From: a virus
DNA length: 64,000 nucleotides
IMG/VR virus record: IMGVR_UViG_3300005573_000058
Span: 64,001-128,000 of that record
Strand: one strand, 5' to 3'
Both the position numbers and the translations under genes were made by a program. The notes under the pieces were generated by a model that did no database searches, was not told the origin of the DNA, and saw only the letters and a list, made by a program, of their open reading frames with translations. Numbering within the stretch: the first letter of the stretch is position 1; the number at the start of each line of letters is the position of its first letter. Positions 24-29,028 of this stretch are shown here, piece by piece.

Positions 24-683
24 TTATATTTCTTCCCCCCTCTGCCATATCTTTTTAATCTCACTAGTAGCAGGATAGCTAGTTAATATATTATACATTA
101 GATGAGCAGGACTGACAACACTATCAACTGCCAATCTCACGCCAGCATATTCATAAGATAGAGCAGCTAACTCACTACAGAAGTAAGCAAAATCAACTTG
201 ATTAAGATATCTAGCTATTATAGTATCTTTAACTAAATACTTTATAATAGGTATCTTTAACAAAAACGACAGCACGCCAGGTAGATCATACAACGTGCCA
301 ACCTTACTCAATGCAAATCTACATATCTTCTCTCTTTTATCTGAATCTAATATAGATAAATCTAACGTATATACTGTTTCAAAATCAGTGAAATGTCTAT
401 TCAACTTAGTTACTTTCACGCCAGTGAAATCAGCAGATACACACTCCCCATCGCCAATATACACTTCTACATGAGATGGCAGTGTGTCTATTTTATCATG
501 AAAATTTATATCTTCTATACTCTCATACCATGCTATAAGTTTTGACCATATACTCTTATGATCTCTAACAAATATGAGTGTACCTGGTAGTATATAATCA
601 ATATCATTAGTATCATCTGTTATATCATACAAAAGTTCTTTTCTTTTGTTTTTTAACTGTATATATTTTTTAATATTCAACAT
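24..683 (-). CDS. Permuted papain-like (NlpC/P60, YaeF/YiiX-type) amidase/peptidase
   Basis: 219-aa ORF with His motif SHVEVYIG preceding Cys motif YFCSEL, the permuted order; AGGAGG SD on the - strand. Confidence 0.75.
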   Translation of the reverse strand: MLNIKKYIQLKNKRKELLYDITDDTNDIDYILPGTLIFVRDHKSIWSKLIAWYESIEDINFHDKIDTLPSHVEVYIGDGECVSADFTGVKVTKLNRHFTDFETVYTLDLSILDSDKREKICRFALSKVGTLYDLPGVLSFLLKIPIIKYLVKDTIIARYLNQVDFAYFCSELAALSYEYAGVRLAVDSVVSPAHLMYNILTSYPATSEIKKIWQRGEEI

Positions 684-702
684 AGTTTAACCTCCTGTTA
701 TA

Positions 703-790
703 ACATTACTACATCAGTAGCAGTCGCCGTTTTAACATTACTACATCAGCGGCAGTCGCTATTGTAACATTTACAACATCAGTGGCAGTC
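703..790. repeat. Three tandem ~32-33-bp repeats (ACATTACTACATCAGYRGCAGTCG core)
   Basis: Directly visible; related in reverse complement to the CGACTGCCACTG repeats at 15537-15600. Confidence 0.8.
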
Positions 791-1104
791 GTTCTTTTAT
801 AGTCATTCTTACACATCGTAGATAGTATAGCATATAACTGTTCTAAACAATGATATATTTTAAAATATAGATCAAGTAACGATTGTTACTTGATCATATA
901 ACTGTTCTAAGTAGTGAATGTTATTGTTCTAATAACTGCTGTTATCTGTTTTTTAACTGTATAAGATAGATGAAATAGATGTATAAGAATGATGATAAAG
1001 ATGTAATAAACAAGATATAGGCTGCGAAAGTAAATATAAGAATGATAGTAGAACATATAGAAATATATAAAACAGATATAGAAAGCATAAAAATGAATAT
1101 AACA

Positions 1105-1430
1105 ATGTAGCAGCAGTTAATGAGCAGGTATAAGAGCAGTATAAGAGCAGAATAGAGCAAGATAAGGGCAGTATAAGAGCAATATAAGAGCAAATAAATG
1201 GAACGACAGTTAATAGAGCAATGTAATGTAGAGCTGATGTAAGAGCAGATATAAGAGCAAGTAGAAGGCGGTGCGGTTTATAGAACAATAACGGCGACAT
1301 AACTTATAGAGCAGGTATAGGAACAGTATAGAGCTGTTATTAGAGCAAAGAAAAAAGAGCGGTGTAAGAACAGGTATAGGAACAATAGAAGAACAATGTA
1401 GAGCAGGTATAAGAACGGCTGAAGCAGGTG
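1105..1430. repeat. Degenerate short repeats, ATAAGAGCAG/ATAGAGCAG-like, ~10-12-bp period
   Basis: More than 15 imperfect copies in a non-coding, purine-skewed stretch. Confidence 0.7.
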
Positions 1431-1471
1431 TGTAGCTATCTGAAAGTCATACTATTATCACGAGTGGTAAG

Positions 1472-1611
1472 TGGTTGTTTTTGATGGTATAGGGCTGTTC
1501 CGAGCCCTAGCCATCAAAAACGACCAAATGAAGCCTATCAACCTGGGCTGCAGGGGTTGATAGGATAGGGCACTGTAGCAACTTTCTCCCATAGCTGCCG
1601 CCCTATGGGAG
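1472..1611 (+). promoter_or_regulatory. Structured GC-rich leader (three hairpins) upstream of the first early operon
   Basis: Inverted repeats at 1472-1526, 1534-1564 and about 1586-1611. Confidence 0.6.
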
Positions 1612-1650
1612 GAGGGAAAAAAGAAAATGGCGGCAAAAAGGGAGGTAGGT

Positions 1651-2808
1651 ATGTATAAAAAAGAAGAACAAAGGCAGCCAGGTGACACTCCGGCTGCTAA
1701 CGACAATAATAGGAGTGTCAACAAGCAGGGTAATGGAACAGGGACAGAACATAAAAAAGGAGGTAATATGAACATAGTAAATACATTCATACATAATATG
1801 AAAAAGAATATGACTACAGAAAATGCAAAAGACTTTGCGCAGATCATGACACTGACAGATGCAAAAGCTCTATGGGACAGCTATAAGAACTTCAAGATGA
1901 TAGAGACAGAGGATAACAACAAGAAGATGGAACAGATACTGATGAAACAGTTGATGAAAGAAGCTGTTGAGGCATTCATAAATAGATATAATGGAACAGA
2001 AATGAGTACTGTAGCTATGACTCCAGAAGAGATAGATACAGCTCTTACAAATATTGAAAGAACAGAAGAAGAGATTGAAAAGAAGATTAAAATGATCATG
2101 AGTAAGATAAATACTGATGATATGATGAAAGTCACAAAGAATTCTATATATGAATTTGTTACAGAAGTTGTAAAAATGAAGAATCCAACAACTGCAGATA
2201 TACTGAAACTTGCTATGAATATGAAAGTATCTACAATGACATCAGATACATTCGGTATTAAATTTGAGAAAGCATTTGCAGAAGCAGTAGCTGCTGTCGA
2301 CAAGATTGCTGGAAAGGAAGCTGTAAAGATAGAAATTGAAAATACAGAAGAATCTAAGATGGTTTCTATCCTTGATGGTGTGTTTAAAGTTGATATACTG
2401 AAGATATTCACAGATGTCATCCACATGATGCAAGTGAAGATGGTCAGAAAGTATAGTGATAGAAAATATAATATAGATCAGATGTTGACAGAAAAAACAG
2501 AAGCTATCAAAATGATGAATATTCTTGAGATGATAATAGAAGAGTTTGCGACAGATGGTAAGATAGATGATAAGACAGATGATAAAAAGATTACATTTAA
2601 AAATAATGTAATATTCTTCGAGAACATAGTGATGGATACAATAATAAACAGTCCACGCAGAAATGAATATGCAGAAGAGATAATTAGATATATTAATAAA
2701 ACAGATATAAAGGACAATGAAATCCTTGTTATTACATATGCCGAGATAAATAGTATTACAAGAGAAGCAGAAGTTACATTTAGAACATTGAAAAAGGAGA
2801 CAGTGTGA
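1651..2808 (+). CDS. Hypothetical helical protein; second in-frame SD+ATG at 1768
   Basis: Long ORF; GGAGG precedes both ATG 1651 and ATG 1768. Confidence 0.8.
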   Translation: MYKKEEQRQPGDTPAANDNNRSVNKQGNGTGTEHKKGGNMNIVNTFIHNMKKNMTTENAKDFAQIMTLTDAKALWDSYKNFKMIETEDNNKKMEQILMKQLMKEAVEAFINRYNGTEMSTVAMTPEEIDTALTNIERTEEEIEKKIKMIMSKINTDDMMKVTKNSIYEFVTEVVKMKNPTTADILKLAMNMKVSTMTSDTFGIKFEKAFAEAVAAVDKIAGKEAVKIEIENTEESKMVSILDGVFKVDILKIFTDVIHMMQVKMVRKYSDRKYNIDQMLTEKTEAIKMMNILEMIIEEFATDGKIDDKTDDKKITFKNNVIFFENIVMDTIINSPRRNEYAEEIIRYINKTDIKDNEILVITYAEINSITREAEVTFRTLKKETV

Positions 2809-5396
2809 ACAATAATAAAAATAACAAAATAAATAATAATATGAATACAAATATGAATAACAGAGTGATAATAGCATATACAGACGGATCTTGGACATCT
2901 AACAATCCAAATGTTGCTGGATTTGGTATCGTGATTACAGATATAAATAGAAATGTTGTCTATACAGAGACTGGTGAATTGACAGGTAATATTGTGAAGA
3001 TGAGACAAGTAGCAGGAGAGATGAAAGCTGCTATGAAAGCTGTATATTATGCAATAAACAACAGATATAATGAAATTGTTATCAGATATGACTATGAAGG
3101 CGTCGAAAAATGGGCCACTGGAGCATGGAAAGCAAAGAATGAATGGACTAAGAAATATGCAGAATGGATGAATAACGCGATGAAGAGAATAAGGATCAGA
3201 TTTGAGAAGATTAATGCAGCAGATAATATAGCAGACATGATAGCAAGAGAATCTACTGGAGCAAAGGATGCACATAACAGTGAAAGCAGATTAAAAGGAA
3301 TGTTCAATATGACAATGAAAAAAGATAATAATATGAATAATAACAAAAATAACGATACAGAAAAAGTAAGTCCTATGATTAGAGCAGTAGCGACAGAGGT
3401 AAATAAGATGCTCAATAATGACAACAGAATTAAGAAGATTAACAATGAGTATTGCACAATCGATCTGATTGTTGTAGCAAAGAGAGAAAATTCAGACATC
3501 GTGTCTGTAGCAGCTGAAGCAAGACAAGGCGTGATCAGTATAGAGAATGCAGAGATATATTATAAGAATATGATTAAATTTAAAGGATTCATTCCAACAG
3601 AAGCTGAAATTAAAGCGATAATTGGTGATAGAGAATTCATTTATGTAACTTCCAGTGGTCAAGGTCAGACAGATCCAATTATTATGATAGTTGCAAATGA
3701 TAGAATTAGAGAGGACAGAGAGCTTCTCAAGCTTGTAACGAATAATAAGAAGAAACTGCAAAGAATCAAGCTGCTCATCAGATCTCGTAAGTTCATGTTT
3801 GGTAATATAGGTATTACAGACGTTAAGTTCCTCGAAGATCCTGCTGACAACGATTATAGAACAGATGGTGTTATTTATCTAAATACAGATTTCGTAAGAG
3901 ACTTCAATAAGAAGAACGGTATAGATCTTGTTGGTGCAGAAGTGAAAGGTCTTGTGAAAGGTACTATAATGATGAGAGCAGATATACCATATAATGCTAT
4001 TGGTGTCCCAGTCGAAAATGCTCTCAAGTTCGACACAAGGGATAAGAATCTCATTCTTACACGTTCTGGTATAGCAGAATTTGCTGATTTCAGAATGACT
4101 CATACAAGAGGTCTGCCAATAGAACTTATACATCTTGTGAACAAGAAACTTACAAAGGATGAAAAGATTACAACTGCAGATCTTAAGATCAAGATACATG
4201 ATTCTAAACTCTTACACTATGTGTGGAAGATACCAGAGCTCAGAACAAAGATGATAGTTGAAAAGATCATGGATGAATTCAAAGCTGCTATTGTGAAAGC
4301 ATTCAAGACAGATATAAGGAAAGCTGGTGCTGTAATTGAACCTAAACTTGATCTTGACTATGACGAAGTAGTTGTACCACGCAAGATAGCAGAATGGATG
4401 AATATTAAAGTTGGTGACAAGGTTGCTCTATTCAGATCTCCAATTCCAACTCTGTTCAATCTTGCACAACTTAAAGTTGTAGCAACTACAGAACATAATG
4501 TGATCATGCTCAATCCAGATGTTGTGAAGTTTATACTTCTTGGTGATTATGATGGTGATACTGCCTTTATTATAACAGAACCAAGAATTGTTAAAGTTGC
4601 AACACCACCATCTACAATTATAGATGAAGCAAAGAGACTTGTAACTGAGTATGCAGAGAAAGTAGAAGAAAGGGCAGCTAATGTTGGTGATCTTGATGAG
4701 TATGAAATATGGAATCTGTCTTATAAGAACGCACAGCAGATTGGTAGAGCAACTTATAATCATTGGAGCTATATTGAGAAACATTATACATTCAGAGAAC
4801 AGATGAAGAGCTGGCTCTATAGAGTTCAGATGATCATAGATGCAACTAAATATGGAATCAATATTGGAGAAGTACAGAGCGATCTCGAAAATGAAATATA
4901 TGAAAATATGCTTGTTTCTGGTAAGTTTAGTGCAGAAAGTACCATAGAACTAGTAAATAAGAAGATTAATAGAACAGAAATATTTGGTATCCAAATGACA
5001 GAAGCATTTAAACTTGCATTTAAGAAGATGATTGAATATATGAATAAAGATGTTGATACAGCTGATATGAATAGAATTAGAAAGTTTACTAACGATGCAA
5101 TAGAACTGATTAAGAAACAAGGAAAGACAAAGATCTTAGATGAATATCTACTTACACTTTATAGAGATAAGAAATTTAATACTATAAAAACTATGATAGA
5201 AACAGATACTGAAAATAAGATCGATAGATTTATACTTGCTATTGCTGCACTCAGAGTATGGAACTATCCATGGAATGTTGGTATAGCAGAATTTGTGAAT
5301 CCAGATCTTATTGAAAAGCTTTATAATATAGAACATGCTAATTTCGAAGATGAAGAGCCAGAAATAGGAATAGATATTGATCAGGAGGAGATATGA
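2805..5396 (+). CDS. RNase HI domain fused to a single-subunit two-barrel (YonO/cellular RdRP-like) RNA polymerase
   Basis: N-terminal YTDGSW, RQVAGEM, YDYEG, NIAD (RNase H); then TDGVIY, KGLVKG, LFRSP, LGDYDGD, IDATKYG (two-barrel polymerase motifs). Confidence 0.8.
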   Translation: MNNNKNNKINNNMNTNMNNRVIIAYTDGSWTSNNPNVAGFGIVITDINRNVVYTETGELTGNIVKMRQVAGEMKAAMKAVYYAINNRYNEIVIRYDYEGVEKWATGAWKAKNEWTKKYAEWMNNAMKRIRIRFEKINAADNIADMIARESTGAKDAHNSESRLKGMFNMTMKKDNNMNNNKNNDTEKVSPMIRAVATEVNKMLNNDNRIKKINNEYCTIDLIVVAKRENSDIVSVAAEARQGVISIENAEIYYKNMIKFKGFIPTEAEIKAIIGDREFIYVTSSGQGQTDPIIMIVANDRIREDRELLKLVTNNKKKLQRIKLLIRSRKFMFGNIGITDVKFLEDPADNDYRTDGVIYLNTDFVRDFNKKNGIDLVGAEVKGLVKGTIMMRADIPYNAIGVPVENALKFDTRDKNLILTRSGIAEFADFRMTHTRGLPIELIHLVNKKLTKDEKITTADLKIKIHDSKLLHYVWKIPELRTKMIVEKIMDEFKAAIVKAFKTDIRKAGAVIEPKLDLDYDEVVVPRKIAEWMNIKVGDKVALFRSPIPTLFNLAQLKVVATTEHNVIMLNPDVVKFILLGDYDGDTAFIITEPRIVKVATPPSTIIDEAKRLVTEYAEKVEERAANVGDLDEYEIWNLSYKNAQQIGRATYNHWSYIEKHYTFREQMKSWLYRVQMIIDATKYGINIGEVQSDLENEIYENMLVSGKFSAESTIELVNKKINRTEIFGIQMTEAFKLAFKKMIEYMNKDVDTADMNRIRKFTNDAIELIKKQGKTKILDEYLLTLYRDKKFNTIKTMIETDTENKIDRFILAIAALRVWNYPWNVGIAEFVNPDLIEKLYNIEHANFEDEEPEIGIDIDQEEI

Positions 5397-5722
5397 TCGA
5401 CAATAAAATAATTAATATGATATTTTATAAAGTTGTTGTCAGAGGAACTAACAGCGGACCATGGTCAATTAATATGACAGAGAAAGAGAAAGCTACATCC
5501 AAATATGTATTCTTTGCAGATGAAAGAAACATTAATATATGGATCAGAGAGGCAGTAAGAACTTATGGCGACAGATATGAATTTGATCTTGTTTGCTATA
5601 GAGTTAAAGTAAATAATATTGATAATGTTATATATGAACCTAATCAGATTGTTATCAGAAAAGATGCAATTATATCTGTAACAGAGAAGATGAGAGTAAA
5701 GATCAACAAGGAGGCAGTGTGA
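5393..5722 (+). CDS. Hypothetical protein
   Basis: ORF with SD, overlapping the upstream stop. Confidence 0.75.
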   Translation: MIDNKIINMIFYKVVVRGTNSGPWSINMTEKEKATSKYVFFADERNINIWIREAVRTYGDRYEFDLVCYRVKVNNIDNVIYEPNQIVIRKDAIISVTEKMRVKINKEAV

Positions 5723-6420
5723 ACAATAATATTAATATAACTATGAAGAATCTTATGAAACAGATCCATGAATATATGAAGCAGATTCATGAACATAATA
5801 GCAGAATAAGTCATGAACAGAAGTTACAGAGAGAGATAAAAGATAATAGAAAGTTGATAATCAGATGGCTACAAGCATATGAAGTTGTTGATAAGACATA
5901 CGATGAAATATTTGAATATGAATTCAGTACAGCAGATAAGATAGAGAAAGCAGCAGAGGTAGTGATAAATAAGAAACATATGGATCATGTAAAAGTCGGA
6001 TTATTGTTCAATCATAAAGCTGTAAGAAGAACATTCAAAGGAGATGTATTTTCAATGTCAGGAGAACAGTTGAAAGATCTATTGAACAGATATGTGAGAG
6101 CGATGAAAGATGAAAACAATAGTGAGGATAGTTTAACAGAACAGTTCTTTAAGATGCATCATCTGAATGTACATACTGTTGAACAGATAGATGACAACAG
6201 ATTATATAAAACACAGAAAGCAGGTGGAGTTGTTCGTGAGTGCTGGGTCAGAGGTAGAATAATAGGTATAGTACTTAGAGATAGAATAAATCATATTTAC
6301 AACGAAAAAGAAGGACAGTTAATTATAGATGTATTAAGAACAGCGTTAGAATATGCGAAAAAGAACAATATACCAGTTTACATAATAGATGATAGGCAGC
6401 AGAGAGTATATATGGCATAA
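5719..6420 (+). CDS. Hypothetical protein
   Basis: 233-aa ORF, GTG start after GGAGG, translationally coupled. Confidence 0.75.
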   Translation: MNNNINITMKNLMKQIHEYMKQIHEHNSRISHEQKLQREIKDNRKLIIRWLQAYEVVDKTYDEIFEYEFSTADKIEKAAEVVINKKHMDHVKVGLLFNHKAVRRTFKGDVFSMSGEQLKDLLNRYVRAMKDENNSEDSLTEQFFKMHHLNVHTVEQIDDNRLYKTQKAGGVVRECWVRGRIIGIVLRDRINHIYNEKEGQLIIDVLRTALEYAKKNNIPVYIIDDRQQRVYMA

Positions 6421-6430
6421 CAATTTAAAA

Positions 6431-6820
6431 AAGCATCAGATATACATACTAGACGCATGCACTGTCGTGCACTGTAAGTGCATATGCATGTGTTACCTTT
6501 CTTAAGGTAACATGTGCATGGTGCATGTTGTTAGTATCTATATCTGATGCTTGGGTGTTGGCCTCACCCTTAAAAAAGGCCCGTTAGTTCAGGTGAGGTT
6601 CCGGACGAGAACATAGGAACCCCGGGGGCAGTAGCCCTGACATCGACAGCGGGCACTAATGTGCACCACGCTGTCGATTTTTTTCTTCCTGGCAGTCCTT
6701 AAGCTGCAGGAGGACATAAGTCCAGGAAGAGAAAATGGTAACTGCAGCAAAAAACAAGAGCGATGGCATGGTGCCATCGCTCTAAACTTTGCTGCCTTTT
6801 ATGGCGGCAGAAGGAGGAGG
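6431..6820 (+). ncRNA. Candidate structured RNA or long 5' leader
   Basis: ~120-nt hairpin at 6431-6552, GC-rich multibranch element at 6553-6645, hairpins at 6642-6678 and 6681-6735; GC far above background. Confidence 0.45.
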
Positions 6821-6821
6821 T

Positions 6822-7199
6822 ATGTCTTTGTTGAAATTTGATGTCAAAAAAGTTATTATCACAAAAAATGAGATAAAAGTTGAAAAAAATGTTGTTGAAG
6901 CGATTAAAAAAGTTGCGGATATATCTTATAAGATGTATCCGCTTAAGAAAATTGTATGGATAAAGATTGACGATTTATGCGTTATAAGTCAAAATCCTAA
7001 AGGTAGAAGTATATATGCTAAGTTAGTAAGTAAAAACATAATAGGAATATATAGAGTAGGATGGATTGTTAAAGATAAAAAGGGTAAAAGAGAGTGGGTA
7101 GCAAAATATTTTTTGCGACCTAATCGAGAAAAAAATATATTTGAACTGGAAATCTACAAGCCAGGTTCGAAGATACCTGGCTTAGATGACAGGAAGTAA
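6822..7199 (+). CDS. Hypothetical cassette protein, paralog of 12565-12996
   Basis: Shared SQNPKG.S.YA.LVS.N.IG.YR.GW and AKYFLR.NR...DDRK. Confidence 0.85.
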   Translation: MSLLKFDVKKVIITKNEIKVEKNVVEAIKKVADISYKMYPLKKIVWIKIDDLCVISQNPKGRSIYAKLVSKNIIGIYRVGWIVKDKKGKREWVAKYFLRPNREKNIFELEIYKPGSKIPGLDDRK

Positions 7200-7420
7200 A
7201 ATAAATATGGTGGGTGGATAGGTTTGTTATTCTATCCCCCCCACCATATTCCCTCCAGGGAGAGTAGCGATTATGTATTGTTGCTACTCTCACTATGGGG
7301 AAGGAATAAACACACAGGCAACTGAAAATATGGTTGCCTGTGTTAATGGTTTTTAAAAAATTTGATAGGAACAGTGAGGTTCTATTCCTTCTGTTCCTAT
7401 CATAAAAATAAGGAGGTATT

Positions 7421-7756
7421 ATGTTAATTGTGTGTAACAGTTTTAGCACAAATATGTTAAATTCTTTTAATGATGAATCAGTTATCAGTTTCCGAAAAAT
7501 TTCCTTGCAAGAAGCAAGGAAATTCGTAGAAGACGCTGAGAGCGTCTCATCAGCTGTCGGCCATGCGCCGACTGCAGAAGTATTCTCTAAGTTGTTGGGA
7601 ATTAGAATAGAAACGAACAGGACCGAGATAAAACTCGGTCCTGAAACTGTCTTACTAATAGGTAGCCTCGGAACGAGGCTACCTGAAGGAAGAATCCTGT
7701 CCAAGGAAGAGCTTGAAGCTCTTCCAATTATTTGGTGGGTCGCCTCATTGGTTTAG
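7421..7756 (+). CDS. acrIII-1: DUF1874 (STIV B116-like) protein, AcrIII-1-type cyclic oligoadenylate ring nuclease
   Basis: Motifs NSFSTNML, SAVGHAPTA (catalytic GH), NRTEIKL and RLPEGRILS..EL. Confidence 0.8.
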   Translation: MLIVCNSFSTNMLNSFNDESVISFRKISLQEARKFVEDAESVSSAVGHAPTAEVFSKLLGIRIETNRTEIKLGPETVLLIGSLGTRLPEGRILSKEELEALPIIWWVASLV

Positions 7757-7768
7757 GCAACCCACCAA

Positions 7769-7798
7769 AGAGAAGCCCCTTTCAGGGCTTCTCTTTTT
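7769..7798 (+). terminator. Rho-independent terminator
   Basis: AGAGAAGCCC/GGGCTTCTCT stem followed by a T run; similar ones at about 8157, 8903, 9530, 10982, 11354, 13002 and 13690. Confidence 0.75.
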
Positions 7799-7991
7799 GC
7801 CCCCCGCCATAGAGTTCCACAGTAGCCTGCGGGGGGCTTGTTCATACTACAGATGTAACATATGTAACAGTTGTATGAACAGAAGATTTCATTACTGTTC
7901 ATACAACTGTTGTATCTGCTTAAAACGGTTTTTAAAAAATAGAAATAGCAGGTTCTACTCCTGCTACTTCTATTATAAAAAAGGAGGTTGT
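7799..7991 (+). repeat. Cassette leader module, copy 1 (GC hairpin, long hairpin, GGTTTTTAAAAAA, leader hairpin type Y, SD)
   Basis: One of eight full copies. Confidence 0.9.
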
Positions 7992-8171
7992 ATGAAAAAA
8001 GAAGGAAAAATAGTAGTTAGGTTTGGAAGGTCTGATCCTGATGGAATAAGCTACTACTGTTTTCAAGAAGATAAAACTTATTACTCAGGATACTTTGATA
8101 TCATAGAAATAGAATTAAGTATAGAAGAGTGGAAAAAACTGAAAAGTCAATTAAAAACCCACAGCTGCTAA
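7992..8171 (+). CDS. Small hypothetical cassette protein (59 aa)
   Basis: AAGGAGG before ATG 7992; stop lies inside a terminator hairpin. Confidence 0.75.
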   Translation: MKKEGKIVVRFGRSDPDGISYYCFQEDKTYYSGYFDIIEIELSIEEWKKLKSQLKTHSC

Positions 8172-8191
8172 ACTGTGGGTTTTTTCTTTTT

Positions 8192-8383
8192 GCCCCCCGC
8201 CCTAGCCAATCCAAAGTAGCTGGCGGGGGGCTTGTTCATATTAAAGATGTAACAGAAGTATGAACAGAAGTTTTATTACTGTTCATACAACTGTTGCATC
8301 AATAGAGGTTTTTAAAAAAAGAGCAATGACAATGGTGTCATTGCTCTAAACAGCTGCCTTACGGCAGCAAAAAGGAGGTTTTT
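8192..8383 (+). repeat. Cassette leader module, copy 2 (leader hairpin type X)
   Basis: Same architecture as copy 1. Confidence 0.9.
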
Positions 8384-8920
8384 ATGATAAAAGAAGTTCA
8401 TGTAAACATATATGAAGTAATCATAAGAAAACTGGATACACCTTCTGACATATCTAAAGATGAAGCTATGATATACTTACAACTTGCGAAAGATAACGAT
8501 AATTATTACAGAAACGCAAAAAGAATTTATGAAAAGTTCAAAGATGATCCTGAGATAAGAAAAGAACTGCTCGAAAATGGTTTTACAGATCCTAAATTCT
8601 TATGGTCGTTAAGCGAAGACGAAATTAAAAATGCAAGAAAAGATTACAGATTTGCATTGGAAATAGTGTATAATATGACAGCGAAGGAAATCAGAGATGT
8701 TATACAAAGATGGAAGAAGGAAGAGGAAGAAATAGAAAGAAAGAGGAAAGAAGAAGAAAAAGAAGAAGCAAAAAGAATTGCTGAAGAGCTAGAAATTACA
8801 AAAGAAGATATAATAAGCAAGCCAGTAGAAGTAATCAAAAGGATAAGAATTATGAAAAATGCATATTTAAAAGAAGCAAAAGAAGTATTTGATAAAATAA
8901 AGAAAGTCCTCCTTGAGTGA
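8384..8920 (+). CDS. Hypothetical charged, helical cassette protein
   Basis: ORF with SD and terminator. Confidence 0.8.
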   Translation: MIKEVHVNIYEVIIRKLDTPSDISKDEAMIYLQLAKDNDNYYRNAKRIYEKFKDDPEIRKELLENGFTDPKFLWSLSEDEIKNARKDYRFALEIVYNMTAKEIRDVIQRWKKEEEEIERKRKEEEKEEAKRIAEELEITKEDIISKPVEVIKRIRIMKNAYLKEAKEVFDKIKKVLLE

Positions 8921-8948
8921 GGACTTTCTTTTTTTGTTACAGTAATCA

Positions 8949-9144
8949 GCCCGCCGCCACAGAATTTCAAAGCAGCCTGCGGCGGGCTTGTTTTTAAAGA
9001 TGCAACAGATGTATAGACAGAAGATTTTAATATAGTTCATACATCTGTTGCATCTGCTTAAAACGGTTTTTTAAAAAACAAGAGCGATGGCATGGTGCCA
9101 TCGCTCTAAACCTTGCCATCATATTGATGGCAAAAGGAGGTAAT
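8949..9144 (+). repeat. Cassette leader module, copy 3 (type X)
   Basis: GCCCGCCGC/GCGGCGGGC compensatory variant of the GC hairpin. Confidence 0.9.
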
Positions 9145-9546
9145 ATGAAGAAGTATGATGCTATTTGTTTGTTAAAGAAAATTGGAACAACCAAAGAAAA
9201 CTTTGAACAAATGCCAAAAGAAGAAATAGTAGAAAAAATTTATAAGGAACTGAATACATATAGTTTACAAACTGCGAATGATTTATATAAAGAGATAAAG
9301 GAATCTGTTCACAAAGAAGTTGATATAAAAGAAGCTTTAACTGATTTCTCAAATAAAGTTGAAGCTGCTGATAAAAATGCTTACGATATAGAGTTTATTT
9401 ACGACATGTTGGATGCTGTTATAGAATTGCTACAAGACTTAGGATATGAAATTGACAAAGATATATCCAAAAGATTATGGAGAACGTTAGGTGAAATGAA
9501 GATCATTTGTGAAAAATATGAAAGTAAAAAGAACGCTCTCAACTGA
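9145..9546 (+). CDS. Hypothetical cassette protein
   Basis: SD at 9134-9140; terminator overlaps the stop. Confidence 0.8.
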   Translation: MKKYDAICLLKKIGTTKENFEQMPKEEIVEKIYKELNTYSLQTANDLYKEIKESVHKEVDIKEALTDFSNKVEAADKNAYDIEFIYDMLDAVIELLQDLGYEIDKDISKRLWRTLGEMKIICEKYESKKNALN

Positions 9547-9573
9547 GAGCGTTCTTTTTTGTTACAGTAATCC

Positions 9574-9763
9574 GCCCGCCGCCCCAGCTTATCCAAAGCA
9601 GCCTGCGGCGGGCTGTTCATATTACAGATGCAACAGATGTATGAATAGAAGATTTTAATACAGTTCATACATCTGTTGTATCAACAGAGGTTTTTAAAAA
9701 AATCGGTAGGAACAGTAAGGTTCTATTCCTTCTGTTCCTATCTGTAAATAAAAGGAGGTATTT
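9574..9763 (+). repeat. Cassette leader module, copy 4 (type Y)
   Basis: Same architecture. Confidence 0.9.
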
Positions 9764-10983: not shown

Positions 10984-11010
10984 GAAGCCCCTTTCGGGGC
11001 TTCTTATTCC

Positions 11011-16465: not shown

Positions 16466-16466
16466 T

Positions 16467-21435: not shown

Positions 21436-23523
21436 ATGAAAAATAAAAAGCAAGTTTTAAAAGCTGCCCCGATAAAATTGGTAAAGGGGCAGAGATTTGT
21501 AATGCTTAGACATATAGTAGTTAAGAAAGATGGTACATTTGAAATAACAGATGGTAAGTATGTTAACATCGATGTAGGACAGAATAAATTAGCATTGAAT
21601 ATGTGGAGATATATGGCTAAATTTGTTGATGAAAAAGGTAAGAATATTGTACCATCAAAAGATGTATTAAAAAAGTTAGAAGATCAATATGAAATTACAT
21701 ATATTCATACTGGTCATAGAGGAACTGAGGCTAGAGTATTGTTAAAGAAGTTCAACAAAGTTGAAAGATATCTGAAAGGATTACCTGTTGAAAAGAAAAT
21801 AGCAAGAAGAAAGCTGTTTTTAAGAAGAAAGATAGACGACTTCAGATCATATGGTATAGATAAAATAAGAATAATAAATGTTCCAAAAGAGTATGAAAAA
21901 TATGTAGATGGTGTAATATTCTATAAAGGCAAAGAGATTATGAAAGGTGATAAGAACAGAAGAAACTTAGAAGGAGCAGAAGTGAAAGGATTTGCAAAAG
22001 GATCATTGATGAATGTTAATAAGTCAAAGTTCTTTAAGAAGTTAATAGGAGATGTACAAGAAGATGAATTAGTTATACCATCTTGTAACGTTAAAATGAG
22101 GAAAGATTTAAAATATACAATAGATGATATATGGATAGCTGAATATGCAAAGACAAGAGCTGTTGTTAAAGATGAATTAGAATATGGTATAGCAGCGATG
22201 ATAAAAAATGTAAAACCTATTGATGTACCTGAATGGACATTAGAAAGGATATATGAACTTGTAAAGTTGACTGATAATGATAACATGGCAAGTGCATTGT
22301 TAAAGGCAGGTGTACCATTGAATGATCAGTATTTTGTTCAATCAGCAGAACCTATTATATCTGCTGAGATAAGTAGAATATTTAGAATCGGATATGGATT
22401 AACAGGATTTGCTGTTGCTCTGCCAAAGGCAGGTAAGGTTGATGAAATTGTCGTTGGTAAAAGAATTGCAAAGTGGTTGAATATAAAGAAAGGAGGAACT
22501 GTTGTTCTTACAAGAAATCCAATTCCAGGTATATTAGGACTACTGAGAGTAAAAGTTAAAAAGATTGTAGATAAAGATGTTATTTATGTTCATCCAGATA
22601 TATGGACAGGTGTATTGAAAGGAGACTATGATGGTGATCTGTGTCAGTTGATTGTTGATTATCCAGAGCTTAAAGAACATGCATTTGAGCCAGCTCATGC
22701 TCTAAAGCTAGTTGAAAAAGCAAATAAGATGATAGAGAAAGAAGATAGTACAGAAGAAAATCTGCAGCAAACAGAACTTGATGTATATCATGCTATTGTA
22801 TCAAATGCAGCTGCTGTAGGTATATTGACGATGGAATGGTTAGAAAGGATGAATGAATATCATAAGATGTCAAAAGATAAAAGAGCTGTTCAAATGTATG
22901 TTGATTTTGAAGACATTCAAAAGAGTATAGATGGAATGAAACATGATGCATATAAGAATGCTGTTAAGCTTGCTGATAGAATTAAGAATATTATGAGAAC
23001 GAGACAAGTAAATAGCTATTTAAGAGCTATAAGGAATGTTAATATATCTTATGAGAATAGAATAGAAGTTATAAGAAGTGCAAATTATACATCAGATGAT
23101 ATTTATGAAAAGATTGTATGTAGAAGAAGAAATGCTATAAAGGGATTAGATAGTATTGGTAGTCAAACAGTTGAATATGATTATAGAAGTGCAGCAAAGA
23201 AGATGTTAAAAGAGGTTAATATCGACTCTGAAAGATTACAGAAAGCAAGACAGATGGTGATTAAGTTTCATAGTAAAAATGGATATTCGGAAATGGCTAC
23301 TATTGAGTTAGCTAAGAAGTTGTACAAAACGCTGAAGCTTAAAAAGAATATAGTAGCATTGCTAGAAGCAAGTACATATCCAAGAGGAGTTGGAAGAGCA
23401 GCAATGTTGAGTCTGCCAACTGCAAAAAAGATAGTGAAACTAGCAATTCAAGATATGAACGATGTTAAAGAAATAATAGAACAAGATATAAAAGAAGTTA
23501 AGAAGATAATAAATCAGCCATGA
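21436..23523 (+). CDS. Second single-subunit two-barrel (YonO/RdRP-like) RNA polymerase
   Basis: VDGVIF, GAEVKGFAKG, VLTRNP, KGDYDGD, SIDGMKH; colinear with the polymerase part of 2805-5396. Confidence 0.8.
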   Translation: MKNKKQVLKAAPIKLVKGQRFVMLRHIVVKKDGTFEITDGKYVNIDVGQNKLALNMWRYMAKFVDEKGKNIVPSKDVLKKLEDQYEITYIHTGHRGTEARVLLKKFNKVERYLKGLPVEKKIARRKLFLRRKIDDFRSYGIDKIRIINVPKEYEKYVDGVIFYKGKEIMKGDKNRRNLEGAEVKGFAKGSLMNVNKSKFFKKLIGDVQEDELVIPSCNVKMRKDLKYTIDDIWIAEYAKTRAVVKDELEYGIAAMIKNVKPIDVPEWTLERIYELVKLTDNDNMASALLKAGVPLNDQYFVQSAEPIISAEISRIFRIGYGLTGFAVALPKAGKVDEIVVGKRIAKWLNIKKGGTVVLTRNPIPGILGLLRVKVKKIVDKDVIYVHPDIWTGVLKGDYDGDLCQLIVDYPELKEHAFEPAHALKLVEKANKMIEKEDSTEENLQQTELDVYHAIVSNAAAVGILTMEWLERMNEYHKMSKDKRAVQMYVDFEDIQKSIDGMKHDAYKNAVKLADRIKNIMRTRQVNSYLRAIRNVNISYENRIEVIRSANYTSDDIYEKIVCRRRNAIKGLDSIGSQTVEYDYRSAAKKMLKEVNIDSERLQKARQMVIKFHSKNGYSEMATIELAKKLYKTLKLKKNIVALLEASTYPRGVGRAAMLSLPTAKKIVKLAIQDMNDVKEIIEQDIKEVKKIINQP

Positions 23524-25546: not shown

Positions 25547-27487
25547 ATGAGTCTAAAAGATGAACTCCAAAGAGTAAGAATGGCATCATTGTCAGATGAA
25601 GATTGGTTAGGAATATTCATATTAGAGTTTGCAAAAAGATATGAGTTTTATGGACATCTTGTGTATCAGTTTAGAAGAAGATTAGTTGATCAGAAGATAT
25701 CATATATGGGTACGCCGTTGTTTATGCAGATTGAGATGCCACTTGGAAGTTCAACATTGATAGATAGAAAATTTGTTGATGCAACTTTAGTATCATGTAT
25801 TGAAAATATGAAAACACTGCCTTTTAATCAGGTGATTGGAATTTTGCATCATGAGATATTACATTTTACTAATATGCATTCAATAAGAGGGTTAAATATT
25901 GCGAAACAAATAGCAAAAGAGGTAGGAGTATTAGATCCAAAAGAGTTATATGATAATCCTGTATTTACAGCAATTTTGAATATTGCTGCAGATGCATCTA
26001 TTAATGAATATGTTAGGGAATTTGACGAATACAGAGATGGTATAGTTACGATATCTTCTATCAACAAAGAATATAAACTGAAGTTAAGTCCTGGAGCATC
26101 TTTTGAAGAGATATTCTTCTCTTTATATAAATTTGAAAAAGATAAGATAAAGAAAGCGCAGAAAAGTATTCATGAAATAAGGAAAGTTATACAACAGATT
26201 AATCAGAAGATACAGCAAGCATCTCAGAATAGAAATAAGCAGATAAAGCAGATAACAGAGAAGCTAAAGAAAGAAGCAGGTGAGTATAATAGTAAAGCTA
26301 ATAGCCAACAGAGTCAACAGTTGAAAGATCAGGCAGATAGTATAGATCAGAAATCTGATGAGATGAAAGATGCTGAGAGTAAAGGAGATAATAGAAAGCA
26401 GCAGCAAGTAGAAGATGAAATGAAGAAAATGGCAGGTCAAATGAAAGAGCAGATAGATGAAACAGAACAACAACAGCAGGAAGAAGAAGGAAAAGATAAC
26501 CTCAATAGAATGAAAGATTTAATTAAACAGTTAGAAGACATGTTAAATGGTCAGCAACAAAATCAACAGCAAAATCAGCAACAAAATCAACAACATGAAC
26601 AGGAAGAAGGTAACGATGAAGATCAAAGTGATCAACAGAATAATAGCAGTTTAAAAGATTTGATAAATCAGCTGGAGAAAAACTTTAGCAATCAGCTGAA
26701 AGAGTTAAGAAAGCTATTATCAACACCAATAGCTTTAGCTGATGAGAAAGATAAAGATAATATAGAACAGATGACAAAAGCAAAGATATATAATGCATAT
26801 AAACAGACATCAGATAAAGGTAGAGGATCTATTCCATCGGACGTGTTAGAGATCATAGAAAGTATTGAAAAGCCAGTAAGTATACCTCTTCATCAGTTCT
26901 TAAGAAGAATAGCAAATAGTTATGCTAAACAGAATAGGACATTGTCGTTCAGGAGATATGATAAAAGATATGGTACAGTGCCTGGTGATATAGTTAGTAA
27001 TAAAGAGACTGTCGCATTTATATTAGATGTATCTGGTTCAATGTCAAATGAATTGTTAGCAGAGGGTGTTGCATTTTTGAATACTATATCGAAAGATTAT
27101 GAAACTATTATGTGTCAGATTGATACTGAACTAAAATTAGATCGGATAAAAATACTAAATAGAAGAGTAGATAAACTAGAAGTCGAAGGCAGAGGCGGAA
27201 CAGATTTTAACGATTTATTCAGATTAATGAAAGGTGAAGAACTGGAACAACATGAGATAAAGTATTATAAGTTGTTGAAAAGAGCTGCAACTGTGTTCAT
27301 ATTTACTGATACAAATGCTAGTATAGATACTAGAAGATATAATCAAAAAGAGATAAAACAATCTGTTGTATTTATAACTGATAGTAAATATATATACAAT
27401 GAAGTATTAGATTTTGGTGGTGTAGTTATAAAATATGATAAAAATAATAAGATATATGAAGTAATAAGAGGAGGCATATATGAATAA
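25547..27487 (+). CDS. Metallopeptidase-like (HEXXH) plus vWA domain protein, MoxR partner
   Basis: HHEILH, NIAADASIN, Q/N-rich linker, DVSGS MIDAS motif, GRGGTDF. Confidence 0.85.
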   Translation: MSLKDELQRVRMASLSDEDWLGIFILEFAKRYEFYGHLVYQFRRRLVDQKISYMGTPLFMQIEMPLGSSTLIDRKFVDATLVSCIENMKTLPFNQVIGILHHEILHFTNMHSIRGLNIAKQIAKEVGVLDPKELYDNPVFTAILNIAADASINEYVREFDEYRDGIVTISSINKEYKLKLSPGASFEEIFFSLYKFEKDKIKKAQKSIHEIRKVIQQINQKIQQASQNRNKQIKQITEKLKKEAGEYNSKANSQQSQQLKDQADSIDQKSDEMKDAESKGDNRKQQQVEDEMKKMAGQMKEQIDETEQQQQEEEGKDNLNRMKDLIKQLEDMLNGQQQNQQQNQQQNQQHEQEEGNDEDQSDQQNNSSLKDLINQLEKNFSNQLKELRKLLSTPIALADEKDKDNIEQMTKAKIYNAYKQTSDKGRGSIPSDVLEIIESIEKPVSIPLHQFLRRIANSYAKQNRTLSFRRYDKRYGTVPGDIVSNKETVAFILDVSGSMSNELLAEGVAFLNTISKDYETIMCQIDTELKLDRIKILNRRVDKLEVEGRGGTDFNDLFRLMKGEELEQHEIKYYKLLKRAATVFIFTDTNASIDTRRYNQKEIKQSVVFITDSKYIYNEVLDFGGVVIKYDKNNKIYEVIRGGIYE

Positions 27488-27944
27488 AAATGTAATAATT
27501 GCCTATGTAGATGGATCTTGGTCATCTAAAAATCCTGATATATCAGGATATGGTGTTGTCATTACTGATGTCAATAACAATGTAATTTATGTAGATAAAG
27601 GTTATATTACAGGAGATGCTACAGTAATGAGACAAGTAGCTGGGGAAGTAGAATCAGTTGTAAGAGCTGTTGATTATGCAATAAAGAATAAATATAGTAA
27701 GATTGTTATTAAGTATGATTATGAAGGAGTAAGAAGTTGGGTTACAGGTGACTGGGAAACAAGGAATGAGTGGACAAGAAGATATTCAGAATGGATGGAT
27801 GATGCGAAGAAAAAAGTGCTGATCAAATTTGAAAAAATAGAATCAAAAGATAATGTAGCAGATATAATGGCAAGAGCATATACGAAAGCAGGAGATGTTC
27901 ATAATAGTGAGAGTAAGTTAAAGAAGGAATTTGATTTAAGATAA
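27480..27944 (+). CDS. Ribonuclease HI (stand-alone paralog of the N-terminal domain of 2805-5396)
   Basis: YVDGSW, RQVAGE, YDYEG, NVAD, HNSES. Confidence 0.9.
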   Translation: MNKNVIIAYVDGSWSSKNPDISGYGVVITDVNNNVIYVDKGYITGDATVMRQVAGEVESVVRAVDYAIKNKYSKIVIKYDYEGVRSWVTGDWETRNEWTRRYSEWMDDAKKKVLIKFEKIESKDNVADIMARAYTKAGDVHNSESKLKKEFDLR

Positions 27945-27982: not shown

Positions 27983-28471
27983 ATGAATAGATTTCCAGTT
28001 TGTGCTGCTTTTTATTATGTTATAGCTAAAAGATTAGGATATAAAGAAGATGAAGCGAAGAGTTTAGGATTAGCAAGAGCAATATTTTTTGCAGCAGCAA
28101 AGACAGGATTTAAAAAAGGAACAGGGAAAGTTACAGGTTATGTTAGTTCAGATAAAAAGACAACGAAATCTAATATTGTACCAAAACAGATCATGTTTGC
28201 AGGTCTTTATACGACAGTAGTAGAAAAGAACGGCGAGTTAAGAGCTGTTGTAGGAAAAGTTATTGATCCTAAGCAGTTTGATAGATCAGTTATAAAGTCA
28301 AAGTTTAATCTTATATCACCTAAATCATTTGACTATTTTTGTGCAAAGGTAAATGATCTTATATCAGACTATACAAATGAAGAGTTGAATAATAGTAAGT
28401 TAGCTTATAGTTTATATCAGAGGATAAGAGATGAATACAGAAGTGATGAGTTTTACAAAGAGGTAAAATGA
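27983..28471 (+). CDS. Hypothetical protein
   Basis: ORF with SD. Confidence 0.8.
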   Translation: MNRFPVCAAFYYVIAKRLGYKEDEAKSLGLARAIFFAAAKTGFKKGTGKVTGYVSSDKKTTKSNIVPKQIMFAGLYTTVVEKNGELRAVVGKVIDPKQFDRSVIKSKFNLISPKSFDYFCAKVNDLISDYTNEELNNSKLAYSLYQRIRDEYRSDEFYKEVK

Positions 28472-29028
28472 TATATCCAATGAGTCCTGTTCCATTACTA
28501 AATCCTAAACTATTAGGCGATGTAAGAAGATATTGGCTGAACTATAAATATGATGGCTGGAGATTAATAGTAGATAAAGGTAAATTTTTTTCTAGAAGGG
28601 GGAACGAGCTGAAAGGATGGATAGGACTTGATAGATTTAAAGATCTAGGTTATGAATATCCTCTTGATTGTGAGCTCATGACGTTGGATATGAAAAGAAC
28701 ATCTATACCATCTGTTAAAAATCAAGATGTAGCTGTTCTTATTATATTGGATGTAATAGTAGAAGATGTTCCTATAGAAGATAGAATATCATTATTTCCA
28801 TCTATCTATAATAACTGTAGATATAAACATTGTGAATTTTATAGTATTGAAAATGTGGACGATATAAATAGGTATTTAGAACAGGCTATAAGAACAGGAT
28901 ACTGTGATGGCATTGTATTAAAAAAGAAAAACAGCTTATATTATCCTGGAAGGGAAGAGCAGATTATGAGCGTTGATTGGATAAAGGTAAAAGAGAGAAT
29001 AAAAGAAAATAAAAAGGAGGTCATATGA
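28468..29028 (+). CDS. ATP-dependent ligase, adenylation domain only
   Basis: KYDGWR (motif I), DCEL, DGIVLK, WIKVK; ends with no OB domain. Confidence 0.8.
   Translation: MIYPMSPVPLLNPKLLGDVRRYWLNYKYDGWRLIVDKGKFFSRRGNELKGWIGLDRFKDLGYEYPLDCELMTLDMKRTSIPSVKNQDVAVLIILDVIVEDVPIEDRISLFPSIYNNCRYKHCEFYSIENVDDINRYLEQAIRTGYCDGIVLKKKNSLYYPGREEQIMSVDWIKVKERIKENKKEVI

Follow-up and report, generated by a model that had tools for sequence, protein, structure and literature searches.

An RNase H domain and a predicted two-barrel RNA polymerase in one polypeptide of a contractile-tailed phage

Covalent linkage of a polymerase to a type-1 RNase H is familiar from retroelement reverse transcriptases, in which the nuclease cuts the polymerase's own hybrid. 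Single-chain two-barrel RNA polymerases raise the question of how such enzymes cope without the accessory elements of large ones. YonO of the Bacillus prophage SPbeta, placed among the phage relatives of eukaryotic RNA-dependent RNA polymerases (RdRPs), is described as a strictly DNA-dependent polymerase that transcribes the SPbeta late genes, and its RNase H-resistant transcripts are reported to be displaced from the template (PMC5467207). The gp64 protein of Thermus phage P23-45, which is described as thermophilic, is a non-virion transcriptase as reported from experiment (bioRxiv 10.1101/2022.12.01.518664). Outside phages, QDE-1 and RDR2, which are about 1,000-1,400 residues long, act in eukaryotic silencing, and QDE-1-type enzymes are reported to produce RNA:DNA hybrids on single-stranded DNA (PMC9508822). 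An RNase H that serves a phage polymerase is described in the chimalliviruses, where the catalytic Asp of the Goslar RNase H-clamp protein (Rhc) is required for nvRNAP-dependent late transcription and where R-loop removal has been proposed by the authors (PMC13648698).

The locus described here lies in a window of 64,000 nucleotides, the whole stretch of DNA analysed, from the record of a contractile-tailed phage of about 139 kb. The source runs are labelled hot springs metagenome, which parallels the thermophily described for P23-45. As in YonO (compared by its published description) and in P23-45 gp64 and P74-26 gp62 (about 600 residues), the polymerase is phage-encoded and forms a single chain, and, as described for P23-45, it is one of two phage polymerases per genome. 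In contrast to these systems, it is joined to an RNase H: gp64 has no such domain, and YonO is described with no nuclease domain and as displacing its own RNA. The second P23-45 polymerase forms a fusion with the tape measure protein, whereas the second one here is a free paralogue. QDE-1 and RDR2 also carry both barrels in one chain and in the same order (Foldseek E 2e-10) but share only about 12-14% identity with the phage polymerase, and no RNase H was named in the structure entries of this type that were matched. Rhc likewise pairs a phage RNase H with a phage two-barrel RNA polymerase, although its RNase H is described as fused to a clamp-like DNA-binding domain, Rhc is also a DNA polymerase subunit and the RNA polymerase is multisubunit. 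The likeness to retroelement reverse transcriptases extends to a Pfam RVT_3 match of the fused domain, but there the polymerase has a right-hand DNA polymerase fold and the RNase H is C-terminal, whereas here the polymerase is two-barrelled and the RNase H N-terminal.

The fused gene and its domains

The following features, all on the + strand, make up the fused gene and its immediate surroundings.

1627..2808, +, upstream gene, 393 aa, its stop codon overlapping the start of the fused gene
2805..5396, +, fused gene (P0001), a single uninterrupted open reading frame of 863 codons plus stop
2805..2861, +, Asn-rich N-terminal leader, residues 1-19, of low model confidence
2862..3272, +, type-1 RNase H domain, residues 20-156, with profile, PDB sequence and structure matches
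3273..3374, +, Asn-rich linker, residues 157-190, running up to M191
3375..5393, +, predicted single-chain RNA polymerase of the two-barrel type, residues 191-863, in clade A of a small phage family
3819..4109, +, first of the two barrels (DPBB-B-like), residues about 339-435, boundaries inferred, with D354-G and K381/K385 (EVKGLVKG)
4302..4574, +, second of the two barrels (DPBB-A-like), residues about 500-590, carrying R544-S-P546 and G580-DYDGD-585
4542-4559, +, metal-binding G580-DYDGD-585, inside the second barrel
4869..5393, +, C-terminal helical region, residues 689-863, of low model confidence
5393..5722, +, downstream gene, 109 aa, overlapping the stop of the fused gene

RNase H and two-barrel polymerase occur in one polypeptide, and the architecture proposed in an earlier note on this DNA (RNase H, Asn-rich linker, two-barrel polymerase) was borne out by the reading frame, the profiles and the structure model. 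The GTG start overlaps the upstream stop by 4 nt and is preceded, 5 nt upstream, by AAAGGAG, the customary ribosome-binding site in this phage genome. Continuity across 3290-3370, where the earlier note wanted reads checked, was supported by contigs from two runs, at depths of 11 and 15, which span 2700-5500 with 0 differing letters and 0 gaps. The identical 863-aa protein is also present in JGI, ENA and Logan assemblies, which possibly all derive from the source samples and are thus not independent of the window.

The RNase H assignment draws on several lines of evidence. Pfam RVT_3 (PF13456) matched residues 26-138 (E 2.7e-6; 27.8 bits, cut-off 21.6), PHROG 531 'Rnase H' matched at E 1.5e-15 and PDB entry 2kq2 matched across residues 24-157 (E 3.7e-13); PF00075 was unlisted for the fused protein, and the homologue at one related locus (L004) scores 47.6 bits. 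In the structure model (pLDDT 74-93 for residues 21-150), residues 19-154 matched 4e19 at Z 17.9 (rmsd 2.6 A, 130 aligned residues) and the domain matched 3hst at Z 17.7. All four catalytic carboxylates (D27, E72, D96 and D144, a D-E-D-D set), claimed earlier to be intact, are present in columns invariant in 5/5 sequences of the RNase H alignment, and D96 pairs with the Asp that is Asn in the substrate complex 4h8k. A 5-residue deletion has removed the 'HSGNK' that is kept by the homologues at L002-L004, a segment which, judged by spacing, would hold the equivalent of E. coli His124. Some active archaeal RNase H enzymes also lack this residue. The domain thus has a type-1 RNase H fold and, judged by its motifs, is catalytically equipped, with cleavage of hybrids predicted.

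Residues 191-863 belong, by modelled fold and by motifs, to the two-barrel RNA polymerase superfamily, and RNA synthesis is predicted. The RdRP profile PF05183 matched residues 580-691 with 27.1 bits (cut-off 23.8; 29.4 bits in the search of the genome itself), a match spanning only positions 434-543 of the 582 in the profile. The motif set listed in the earlier note is complete and invariant in family alignments: D354-G355, K381-G/K385-G, R544-x-P546, G580-DYDGD-585 and IIDATKYG at 677-684. R544-S-P546 and D581-Y-D583-G-D585 are invariant in 9/9 family members, and the R-x-P and DxDGD residues are among eight invariant residues described in PMC2919709. The beta-like barrel of the superfamily is marked by one invariant Asp and a pair of Lys (D837, K979 and K987 in Rpb2), for which the first barrel here has candidate counterparts: D354, K381 and K385 are family-invariant and lie within the range superposed on gp64 and QDE-1. 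The double-psi barrels expected of the predicted structure correspond to two blocks of at least six strands with helices (about 339-435 and 500-590) and to the gp64 and QDE-1 fold matches, and the C-terminal helical region carries a conserved YPWNVG (821-826).

The earlier comparison with YonO and QDE-1 holds in part, as QDE-1 is a clear structural match (Z 17.6) but gp64 and gp62 are closer. The best match was P23-45 gp64 (8f72; Z 20.7, 387 residues aligned), followed by P74-26 gp62 (8f5m; Z 20.2, 383 residues), with RDR2 at Z 17.3 and Rpb1 at about Z 14.5 (Foldseek E-values of these matches 2e-10 to 1e-6). In sequence, the family profile matched the P23-45 gp96 RNA polymerase over R-x-P...DFDGD (fRNPV...DFDGD; E 5e-4), then QDE-1 and then also beta-prime-type subunits; gp64 and gp62 were absent from phmmer and from family-profile matches at E up to 10. 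As modelled, the likeness to gp64 and gp62 is structural only.

The start of the linker, to about F167, resembles the C-terminal tail of a stand-alone RNase H paralogue, while M191 aligns with the start of unfused polymerase homologues. Inspection of the linker for ribosome-binding sites found no GGAG-like site before M191, in keeping with the earlier statement that an internal Shine-Dalgarno sequence is lacking, but there is a weak AAAGGA 9 nt ahead of M169; together these would make an internal translation start in the linker unlikely. The flexible stretch joining the two domains comprises about 90 residues in the model and linker pLDDT is below 50, so that the modelled placement of the domains relative to each other is not backed by confidence.

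Relatives, paralogues and genomic setting

The polymerase family is tiny, with 7 matches among 1.84 billion representative proteins, and RNase H is absent from all six other members in that set. The earlier note knew of no described fusion of this kind, and no described or sampled RNase H–two-barrel polymerase fusion was found elsewhere in literature or sequence searches. When P0001 was compared by tblastn with 50,697 phage records (the presence of SPbeta among them was not established), 0/77 matching records covered at least 80% of the query, and all 30 matches listed covered residues 20/24-135, the RNase H part only. In these searches the fusion is a singleton, seen in one phage.

The pairing is wider. 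At clade-A loci with downstream sequence, a separate same-strand RNase H gene follows the polymerase in 3/3 cases, at distances of 21 bp (L004), 0.76 kb (L002) and 1.8 kb (L003). Separate genes, which the earlier note would have counted against a fusion, are thus found in relatives, but the fusion stands in this phage and appears lineage-specific. Gene order is reversed, with RNase H first here and after the polymerase in relatives, so read-through of neighbouring genes cannot explain the fusion. The downstream 109-aa gene has homologues (34-36% identity) at L002, L003 and L005, in each case two genes upstream of the clade-A polymerase. For the upstream 393-aa gene, the family search gave no match, with weak leads to restriction-endonuclease-like folds only.

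Elsewhere in the window, three further genes concern the same functions.

21436..23523, +, unfused two-barrel paralogue of the polymerase (P0005), 695 aa, clade B, with GDYDGD present
27480..27944, +, stand-alone RNase H paralogue, 154 aa, sharing 56% identity with the fused domain
28468..29028, +, small ATP-dependent DNA ligase (PF01068, E 7.6e-13), one gene after the stand-alone RNase H

P0005 has no Pfam match, and outside the two paralogues no DxDGD signature occurs in open reading frames of more than 150 codons in the record. Branch length is 1.87 for the fused polymerase versus 0.62 for the unfused paralogue, and so long a branch may reflect a changed function. The two RNase H copies are mutual closest relatives and share the unique 5-residue deletion, which points to a lineage-specific duplication. 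The phage also encodes a primase-helicase fusion (DnaG-type and DnaB-type), a DNA polymerase and a sigma-like factor, and so adds to a small, almost unsampled polymerase family a genome that has two paralogues as well as such a factor. The paralogous polymerase, the stand-alone RNase H near the ligase and the primase-helicase had escaped the earlier note, and all bear on function; the first two, together with the RNase H beside the relatives' polymerases, are new here.

The coding strands are 56-60% purine with a GC skew of 0.23-0.37, at 29% GC. Stable RNA:DNA hybrids are favoured by G-rich and purine-rich transcripts. The operon of the fused gene starts 200 bp downstream of a 943-bp non-coding stretch, in which there are a 32-nt repeat (2.9 copies) and an 11-nt-periodic array (1112-1192, 7.4 copies, with more as far as about 1420). 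Repeat arrays are also present at L002 and L003, where they precede the clade-A polymerase by about 2 kb. The richest repeat and AT region is at 14.2-16.2 kb, away from the fused gene.

Possible functions of the fusion

The best reading, which we hold tentatively, is that the polymerase transcribes phage DNA and has a nuclease tethered to it that deals with RNA:DNA hybrids and R-loops. The mechanisms offered in the earlier note, hybrid clearing or primer processing, are likewise proposals. On the precedent of gp64 and YonO, the polymerase would be one of the phage's two non-virion transcriptases, acting on a DNA template, and the tethered RNase H, if active, would cut RNA that remains or becomes paired with the template behind it (co-transcriptional R-loops or extended hybrids), freeing AT-rich, purine-loaded phage DNA for more transcription and for replication. 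The primase-helicase, the DNA polymerase and a second RNase H near the ligase already take care of priming, so the fused RNase H is spare and could specialise. The covalent link and the adjoining RNase H genes of relatives suggest that hybrids either pose a genuine difficulty for this polymerase family or are put to use by it. They also form an independent counterpart to the recent Rhc finding that a phage RNase H supports transcription by phage polymerases. Several points count against this reading. The earlier note had supposed that a minimal polymerase lacks the means to displace RNA, a premise that is not general: YonO, as described (PMC5467207), frees its RNA unaided, so that hybrids are not a necessary product of a minimal polymerase. 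The His124 equivalent is missing from both RNase H copies and activity may be reduced, the stand-alone copy alone could clear R-loops, cutting nascent RNA within an R-loop truncates the message, and the fusion is seen once, on a long branch that perhaps marks a changed function.

The main rival, which we consider unlikely, is a replication starter: a transcript made at an origin-like region would remain paired as an R-loop, and cutting by the fused RNase H would leave a primer whose 3'-OH the phage DNA polymerase could extend, the logic of ColE1 or of the T7 origin within one polypeptide. ColE1-type priming needs RNA polymerase and RNase H, and both are predicted activities of the fused protein. 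The nearby non-coding stretch with its 11-nt array and 32-nt repeat, the arrays upstream of clade-A polymerases at L002 and L003, the hybrids reported for QDE-1-type enzymes on single-stranded DNA (PMC9508822) and the long branch, which suits a change of role, also favour such an enzyme. However, the phage already has a primase-helicase, a better origin candidate lies at 14.2-16.2 kb rather than beside the gene, repeat arrays upstream of early operons could equally be regulatory, and no link between the enzyme and a site is apparent. A self-contained R-loop primer synthase, which would transcribe origin-like repeats and make the replication primer with its own RNase H, seems a distinctly unlikely role for the fusion; in relatives, the polymerase and the unfused RNase H beside it would then amount to the same device in two proteins. 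If true, it would be a new way of starting viral DNA replication, by a replication-initiation enzyme with a dedicated two-barrel RNA polymerase, a kind of enzyme undescribed for any virus.

It is also improbable that the fusion carries no special coupling, a duplicated RNase H gene having lost its stop beside the polymerase gene, with the domain serving ordinary hybrid or primer removal or being partly disabled, and with much of the polymerase perhaps made from an internal start. Confinement to one phage, the lineage-specific duplication with its unique deletion, a polymerase part that starts exactly where unfused homologues start, the weak AAAGGA before M169 and the missing His124 equivalent are all consistent with such an origin. 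Against this, the four carboxylates have been retained while the copies diverged to 54-56% identity, a separate RNase H lies near the orthologous polymerase in 3/3 informative relatives, and it is the GTG of the fused frame, rather than an internal codon, that has the strong ribosome-binding site.

A true RdRP that turns RNA into double-stranded RNA in the manner of QDE-1 or RDR2, with the RNase H acting on DNA-made hybrids, is very unlikely: PF05183 scores above its cut-off and QDE-1 and RDR2 are strong structural matches, but the top matches are DNA-dependent phage enzymes, YonO is described as strictly DNA-dependent despite its kinship to eukaryotic RdRPs, and RNA copying has no known use for a double-stranded DNA phage. 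An assembly or gene-calling artefact, conceivable in a metagenomic record whose relatives have separate genes, is extremely improbable given 863 codons with no stop, letter-for-letter agreement of the two-run contigs over 2700-5500 and the same protein from three assembly sources.

A single gene for an RNase H and a two-barrel polymerase

The RNase H and the polymerase are encoded as one gene, as the earlier note had proposed, in an uninterrupted open reading frame of 863 codons at window 2805-5396 (+). The frame opens with a GTG, 5 nt past AAAGGAG. At this end it has a 4-nt overlap with the stop of the preceding 393-codon gene, and at the other its stop codon overlaps the start of the gene that follows. 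Across 2700-5500, a span that includes the linker at which two separate genes might have met, contigs from two public runs, both labelled hot springs metagenome, cover the locus at depths of 11 and 15 with 0 differing letters, gaps or joints, and the identical 863-aa protein is present in JGI, ENA and Logan assemblies. This agreement means that the frame is not the error of one assembly and does not imply occurrence elsewhere; the assemblies and run contigs are possibly those of the source samples. The runs listed for this stretch include no RNA run. The flanking genes are:

1627-2808: 393-aa protein, translationally coupled to the fused gene
5393-5722: 109-aa protein without known family, its start overlapping the stop of the fused gene (homologue at L002:1540-1863)

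Searches of Pfam, PHROG and PDB sequences gave no match for the 393-aa protein or for most of the neighbours, and the Atlas search gave the 393-aa protein weak leads to restriction-endonuclease-like folds (Mrr, NERD, PD-(D/E)XK) and nothing else.

Residues about 20-157 of the fused protein match Pfam RVT_3 (27.8 bits versus a cut-off of 21.6), PHROG 531 (E 1.5e-15) and PDB 2kq2 (E 3.7e-13). An AlphaFold model of the fused protein, built with 18 aligned sequences, gives block-mean pLDDT values of 74-93 over residues 21-150, and its RNase H part matches archaeal and bacterial RNases H on superposition (Z 17-18, rmsd 2.0-2.8 A over ~130 residues). The columns of D27, E72, D96 and D144 are invariant in a five-member RNase H alignment, and D96 pairs with the position at which the substrate complex 4h8k has Asn in place of Asp. 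Fold and residues together confirm an RNase HI domain with intact acidic catalytic residues. A 5-residue segment, 'HSGNK' in the homologues from metagenomic loci L002-L004, is absent from both RNase H copies of the phage and, by its spacing, is presumably the site of the E. coli His124 equivalent.

The polymerase occupies residues 191-863, beginning where its unfused homologues begin. The match to Pfam RdRP exceeds its cut-off but is confined to the DYDGD barrel. The family profile matches gp96 of Thermus phage P23-45, an RNAP joined to the tape measure, across the R-x-P to DxDGD segment 'fRsPi...GDfDGD' (E 5e-4) and, more weakly, the cellular RdRP QDE-1 and beta-prime-type subunits of Pol IV, Pol V, plastid or bacterial enzymes. 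The model is confident at residues 250-688, excepting 460-500. Foldseek ranked QDE-1 first (2e-10), followed by the cellular RdRP RDR2, gp96 and gp64, and a second structural aligner placed gp64 of P23-45 (8f72; Z 20.7, 387 residues) and gp62 of P74-26 (8f5m; Z 20.2) above QDE-1 (17.6), RDR2 (17.3) and Rpb1 (about 14.5). The two-barrel fold and the likeness to QDE-1 put forward earlier therefore hold, but the closest solved structures are gp64 and gp62, both non-virion RNAPs. The motifs named in the earlier note (DG, KG, R-x-P, DYDGD) are likewise upheld, as the positions D354, K381/K385, R544/P546 and D581/D583/D585 do not vary among nine family members. These residues are consistent with the set that PMC2919709 describes as invariant in two-barrel polymerases, the residue-by-residue alignment to known enzymes covering the R-x-P/DxDGD half.

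An exhaustive HMMER search of 1.84 billion representative proteins returned seven hits at E <=0.001, the fused protein and six others, and no RNase H domain was found in the six (best RNase H-profile score 1.2 bits). Matches in 50,697 phage records were to the RNase H part only. Homologue searches with the whole protein and with the family alignment, each scoring the 8,000 best word-sharing candidates, recovered only the protein's own cluster, as did a search with the RNase H region against proteins of 474-1511 aa (102 candidates); all three are weak negatives. Viral contigs searched for related loci with the protein and with the family alignment yielded 0 relatives, as did genome contigs. The Atlas search gave phage 'RdRP' clusters only (score 0.80), a lead and nothing firmer, and the 50 fold matches listed from BFVD were viral polymerase-only and RNase H-only proteins, with aligned ranges not given and a fused target possible among them. 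No covalent pairing of an RNase H with a two-barrel polymerase was reported in the literature searched or seen in the protein and fold searches, some of them weak negatives, in agreement with the earlier statement that no such fusion had been described. The component parts are of known kinds, and what appears new is their covalent pairing. We conclude that the fusion is genuine and so far unique, within a polymerase family that is barely sampled and in which RNase H and polymerase genes are linked as neighbours more widely than they are fused.

Paralogues, relatives and history of the fusion

Both halves of the fused protein have a second copy in the window:

21436-23523: unfused two-barrel polymerase P0005, 695 aa, GDYDGD present
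27480-27944: stand-alone RNase H (RVT_3), 54-56% identical to the fused domain
27480-29393: in order, the stand-alone RNase H, a 162-aa protein without known family, an ATP-dependent DNA ligase (PF01068) and a DUF1828 protein

P0005 is one of the six family hits, and its presence in this window gives the phage two paralogous polymerases. It is 28% identical to the fused polymerase, has no Pfam hit, and has orthologues in L006-L010 (40-46% identity). No third polymerase was found, with the DxDGD signature occurring in the two paralogues only (ORFs >150 codons) and the family profile likewise finding just two. The stand-alone RNase H is the nearest homologue of the fused domain (others 29-42%) and shares with it the 5-residue deletion and a C-terminal 'HNSES.LK' tail. 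Ligase is the usual partner of RNase H in Okazaki fragment maturation, and 27480-29393 looks like a module of this kind.

Relatives of the polymerase are encoded by nine metagenomic loci. The tree, which took in partial rows and left out P0004, P0007, P0008 and L010, divides the family into two clades (support 100/100): clade A, with the fused enzyme, P0003 of L004 and the tandem pairs of L002, L003 and L005, and clade B, with P0005 and the L006-L010 type. The branch length is 1.87 for the fused copy versus 0.62 for its paralogue. The tandem clade-A genes (770 and 745 aa, both GDFDGD) lie at:

L002:2495-7044
L003:2615-7164
L005:3355-7010

A separate RNase H gene follows the polymerase on the same strand in 3/3 clade-A loci with downstream sequence, at 21 bp (L004), 0.76 kb (L002) and 1.8 kb (L003), the L005 sequence stopping within the polymerase gene. 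L002 and L003 have near-identical polymerases but RNase H genes of 73% identity, so this adjacency represents at most three semi-independent cases. No RNase H was found within 2 kb in the clade-B loci; at longer range, a fragment lies 7.2 kb downstream in L009 and the window's own copy 4 kb downstream. The gene order of the fusion is reversed relative to these relatives, so read-through from one neighbouring gene into the next does not account for the fusion, and its history likely involved a lineage-specific duplication of the RNase H and the joining of one copy in front of a clade-A polymerase. The predicted complex of P0003 with the adjoining L004 RNase H scored 0.00, which weighs neither for nor against binding. 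Homologues of the 109-aa protein (34-36% identity) occur two genes 5' of clade-A polymerases in L002, L003 and L005, and this protein may be an accessory factor.

Genome organisation of the phage

The virus record is 138,661 bp long, with an estimated completeness of ~80%, and the window covers its bases 64001-128000. In a minus-strand block (record 1-64.7 kb) are the genes for the large terminase, the portal and major head proteins, a tail sheath and a baseplate wedge protein, together with those for giant proteins (2,662 and 2,196 aa). The large terminase is nearest to that of Moorella phage MTATph1 (29.7% identity, E 5e-60), with Bacillus phage 0305phi8-36 next. The operon of the fused gene is the first in the plus-strand block. 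Further products of this block are a DNA polymerase (53478-55832), a fusion of a DnaG-type primase with a DnaB-type helicase, nucleases resembling SbcC and SbcD, an NrdD-like reductase, a small ATP-dependent ligase and glycosyltransferases. Two further features are:

42338-46837: NrdD-like anaerobic ribonucleotide reductase, 1,499 aa, profile match split in two with weak helicase-like matches between
51862-52953 (plus-strand block): 363-aa protein with sigma-70 region 2 (E 3.7e-15)

The reductase probably contains an inserted element (e.g. an intein), and with its sigma-70 region 2 protein the phage probably steers the RNA polymerase of the host as well. In addition, a 721-aa protein (29734-31899) matches PHROG 2825 'polymerase' (4e-6) over residues 157-234, with 0 matches in Pfam and in the PDB sequence search.

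Possible roles of the fused protein

Our tentative reading of the fused protein is that of a transcriptase to which a nuclease for hybrids is tethered, since the closest solved enzymes are transcriptases and the phage is already supplied with a primase-helicase as well as another RNase H that lies near a ligase. The tether is long and of low confidence (residues 156-248, pLDDT <50 in the model), so the nuclease could reach RNA re-annealed behind the polymerase. Transcripts rich in G or in purines form stable hybrids. Strand asymmetry across the whole record, which has 29% GC, is strong and tracks transcription, with coding strands of 56-60% purine and a GC skew of ~-0.23 in the minus-strand block and ~+0.27 in the plus-strand block (coding-strand range 0.23-0.37), and the genome therefore looks prone to RNA re-annealing. 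Similarly to the role proposed here, a phage RNase H serves transcription by a phage polymerase in Goslar, where, according to a preprint, the RNase H activity of the RNase H-clamp protein Rhc is required for late transcription by the phage's own polymerase and R-loop removal is proposed (PMC13648698). Counting against a tethered nuclease, the RNAP YonO of phage SPbeta displaces RNA without help, as stated in PMC5467207. The stand-alone RNase H might also be enough, and the fused domain, whose activity is predicted from sequence, appears to lack the His124 equivalent.

An RNA polymerase and an RNase H are together the recipe for the ColE1 origin primer, and the main alternative, which is less likely, is that the fused protein would make and process an origin primer in that fashion. 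The repeats that bear on this reading are:

697-1420: non-coding, between the divergent gene blocks, with repeat arrays
697-791: 32-nt repeat, 2.9 copies
1112-1192, with further copies to about 1420: 11-nt-periodic array of TATAAGAGCAG-like units
14250-16220: ~2 kb, almost ORF-free, with many arrays; the richest repeat and AT region

The first three fit an origin primer, as the operon of the fused gene starts 200 bp past the 943-bp non-coding stretch that carries the 11-nt-periodic array and the 32-nt repeats, and L002 and L003 also have repeat arrays upstream. However, 697-1420 could be either an origin or a regulatory array, and the richest region lies elsewhere, at 14.2-16.2 kb. There, a (TA) run of 24 units and two 11-nt arrays accompany repeats of 33 nt (3.1 copies), 34 nt (3.9) and 28 nt (6.6), some units resembling reverse complements of those at 697-1420, and this region is itself a candidate origin or early-region boundary.

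Three other possibilities, namely that the two polymerase paralogues form a heterodimer and that the protein acts in anti-defence or as a DNA polymerase (PolD-like), were also considered, and no supporting evidence was found for them.

Promoter-like elements were sought around the fused gene. A sigma-70-type promoter scan of 600-7000 was uninformative (35 sites versus 31.7 expected), and a k-mer search found neither GGTTTTTAAA nor GCTCTAAAC upstream of the fused gene. The same search found seven copies of GGTTTTTAAA, all on the + strand at 6779-17913, and all five copies of GCTCTAAAC in the genome lie on the + strand inside that range. Small-gene cassettes fill 6757-17913, with a repeated layout between them that in some copies comprises GGTTTTTAAA, an AGAGC...GCTCTAAAC hairpin, a second hairpin and AAAGGAGG, the most frequent non-homopolymer word 5' of genes in this genome. 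These elements may be a promoter, terminator or leader for a phage polymerase.
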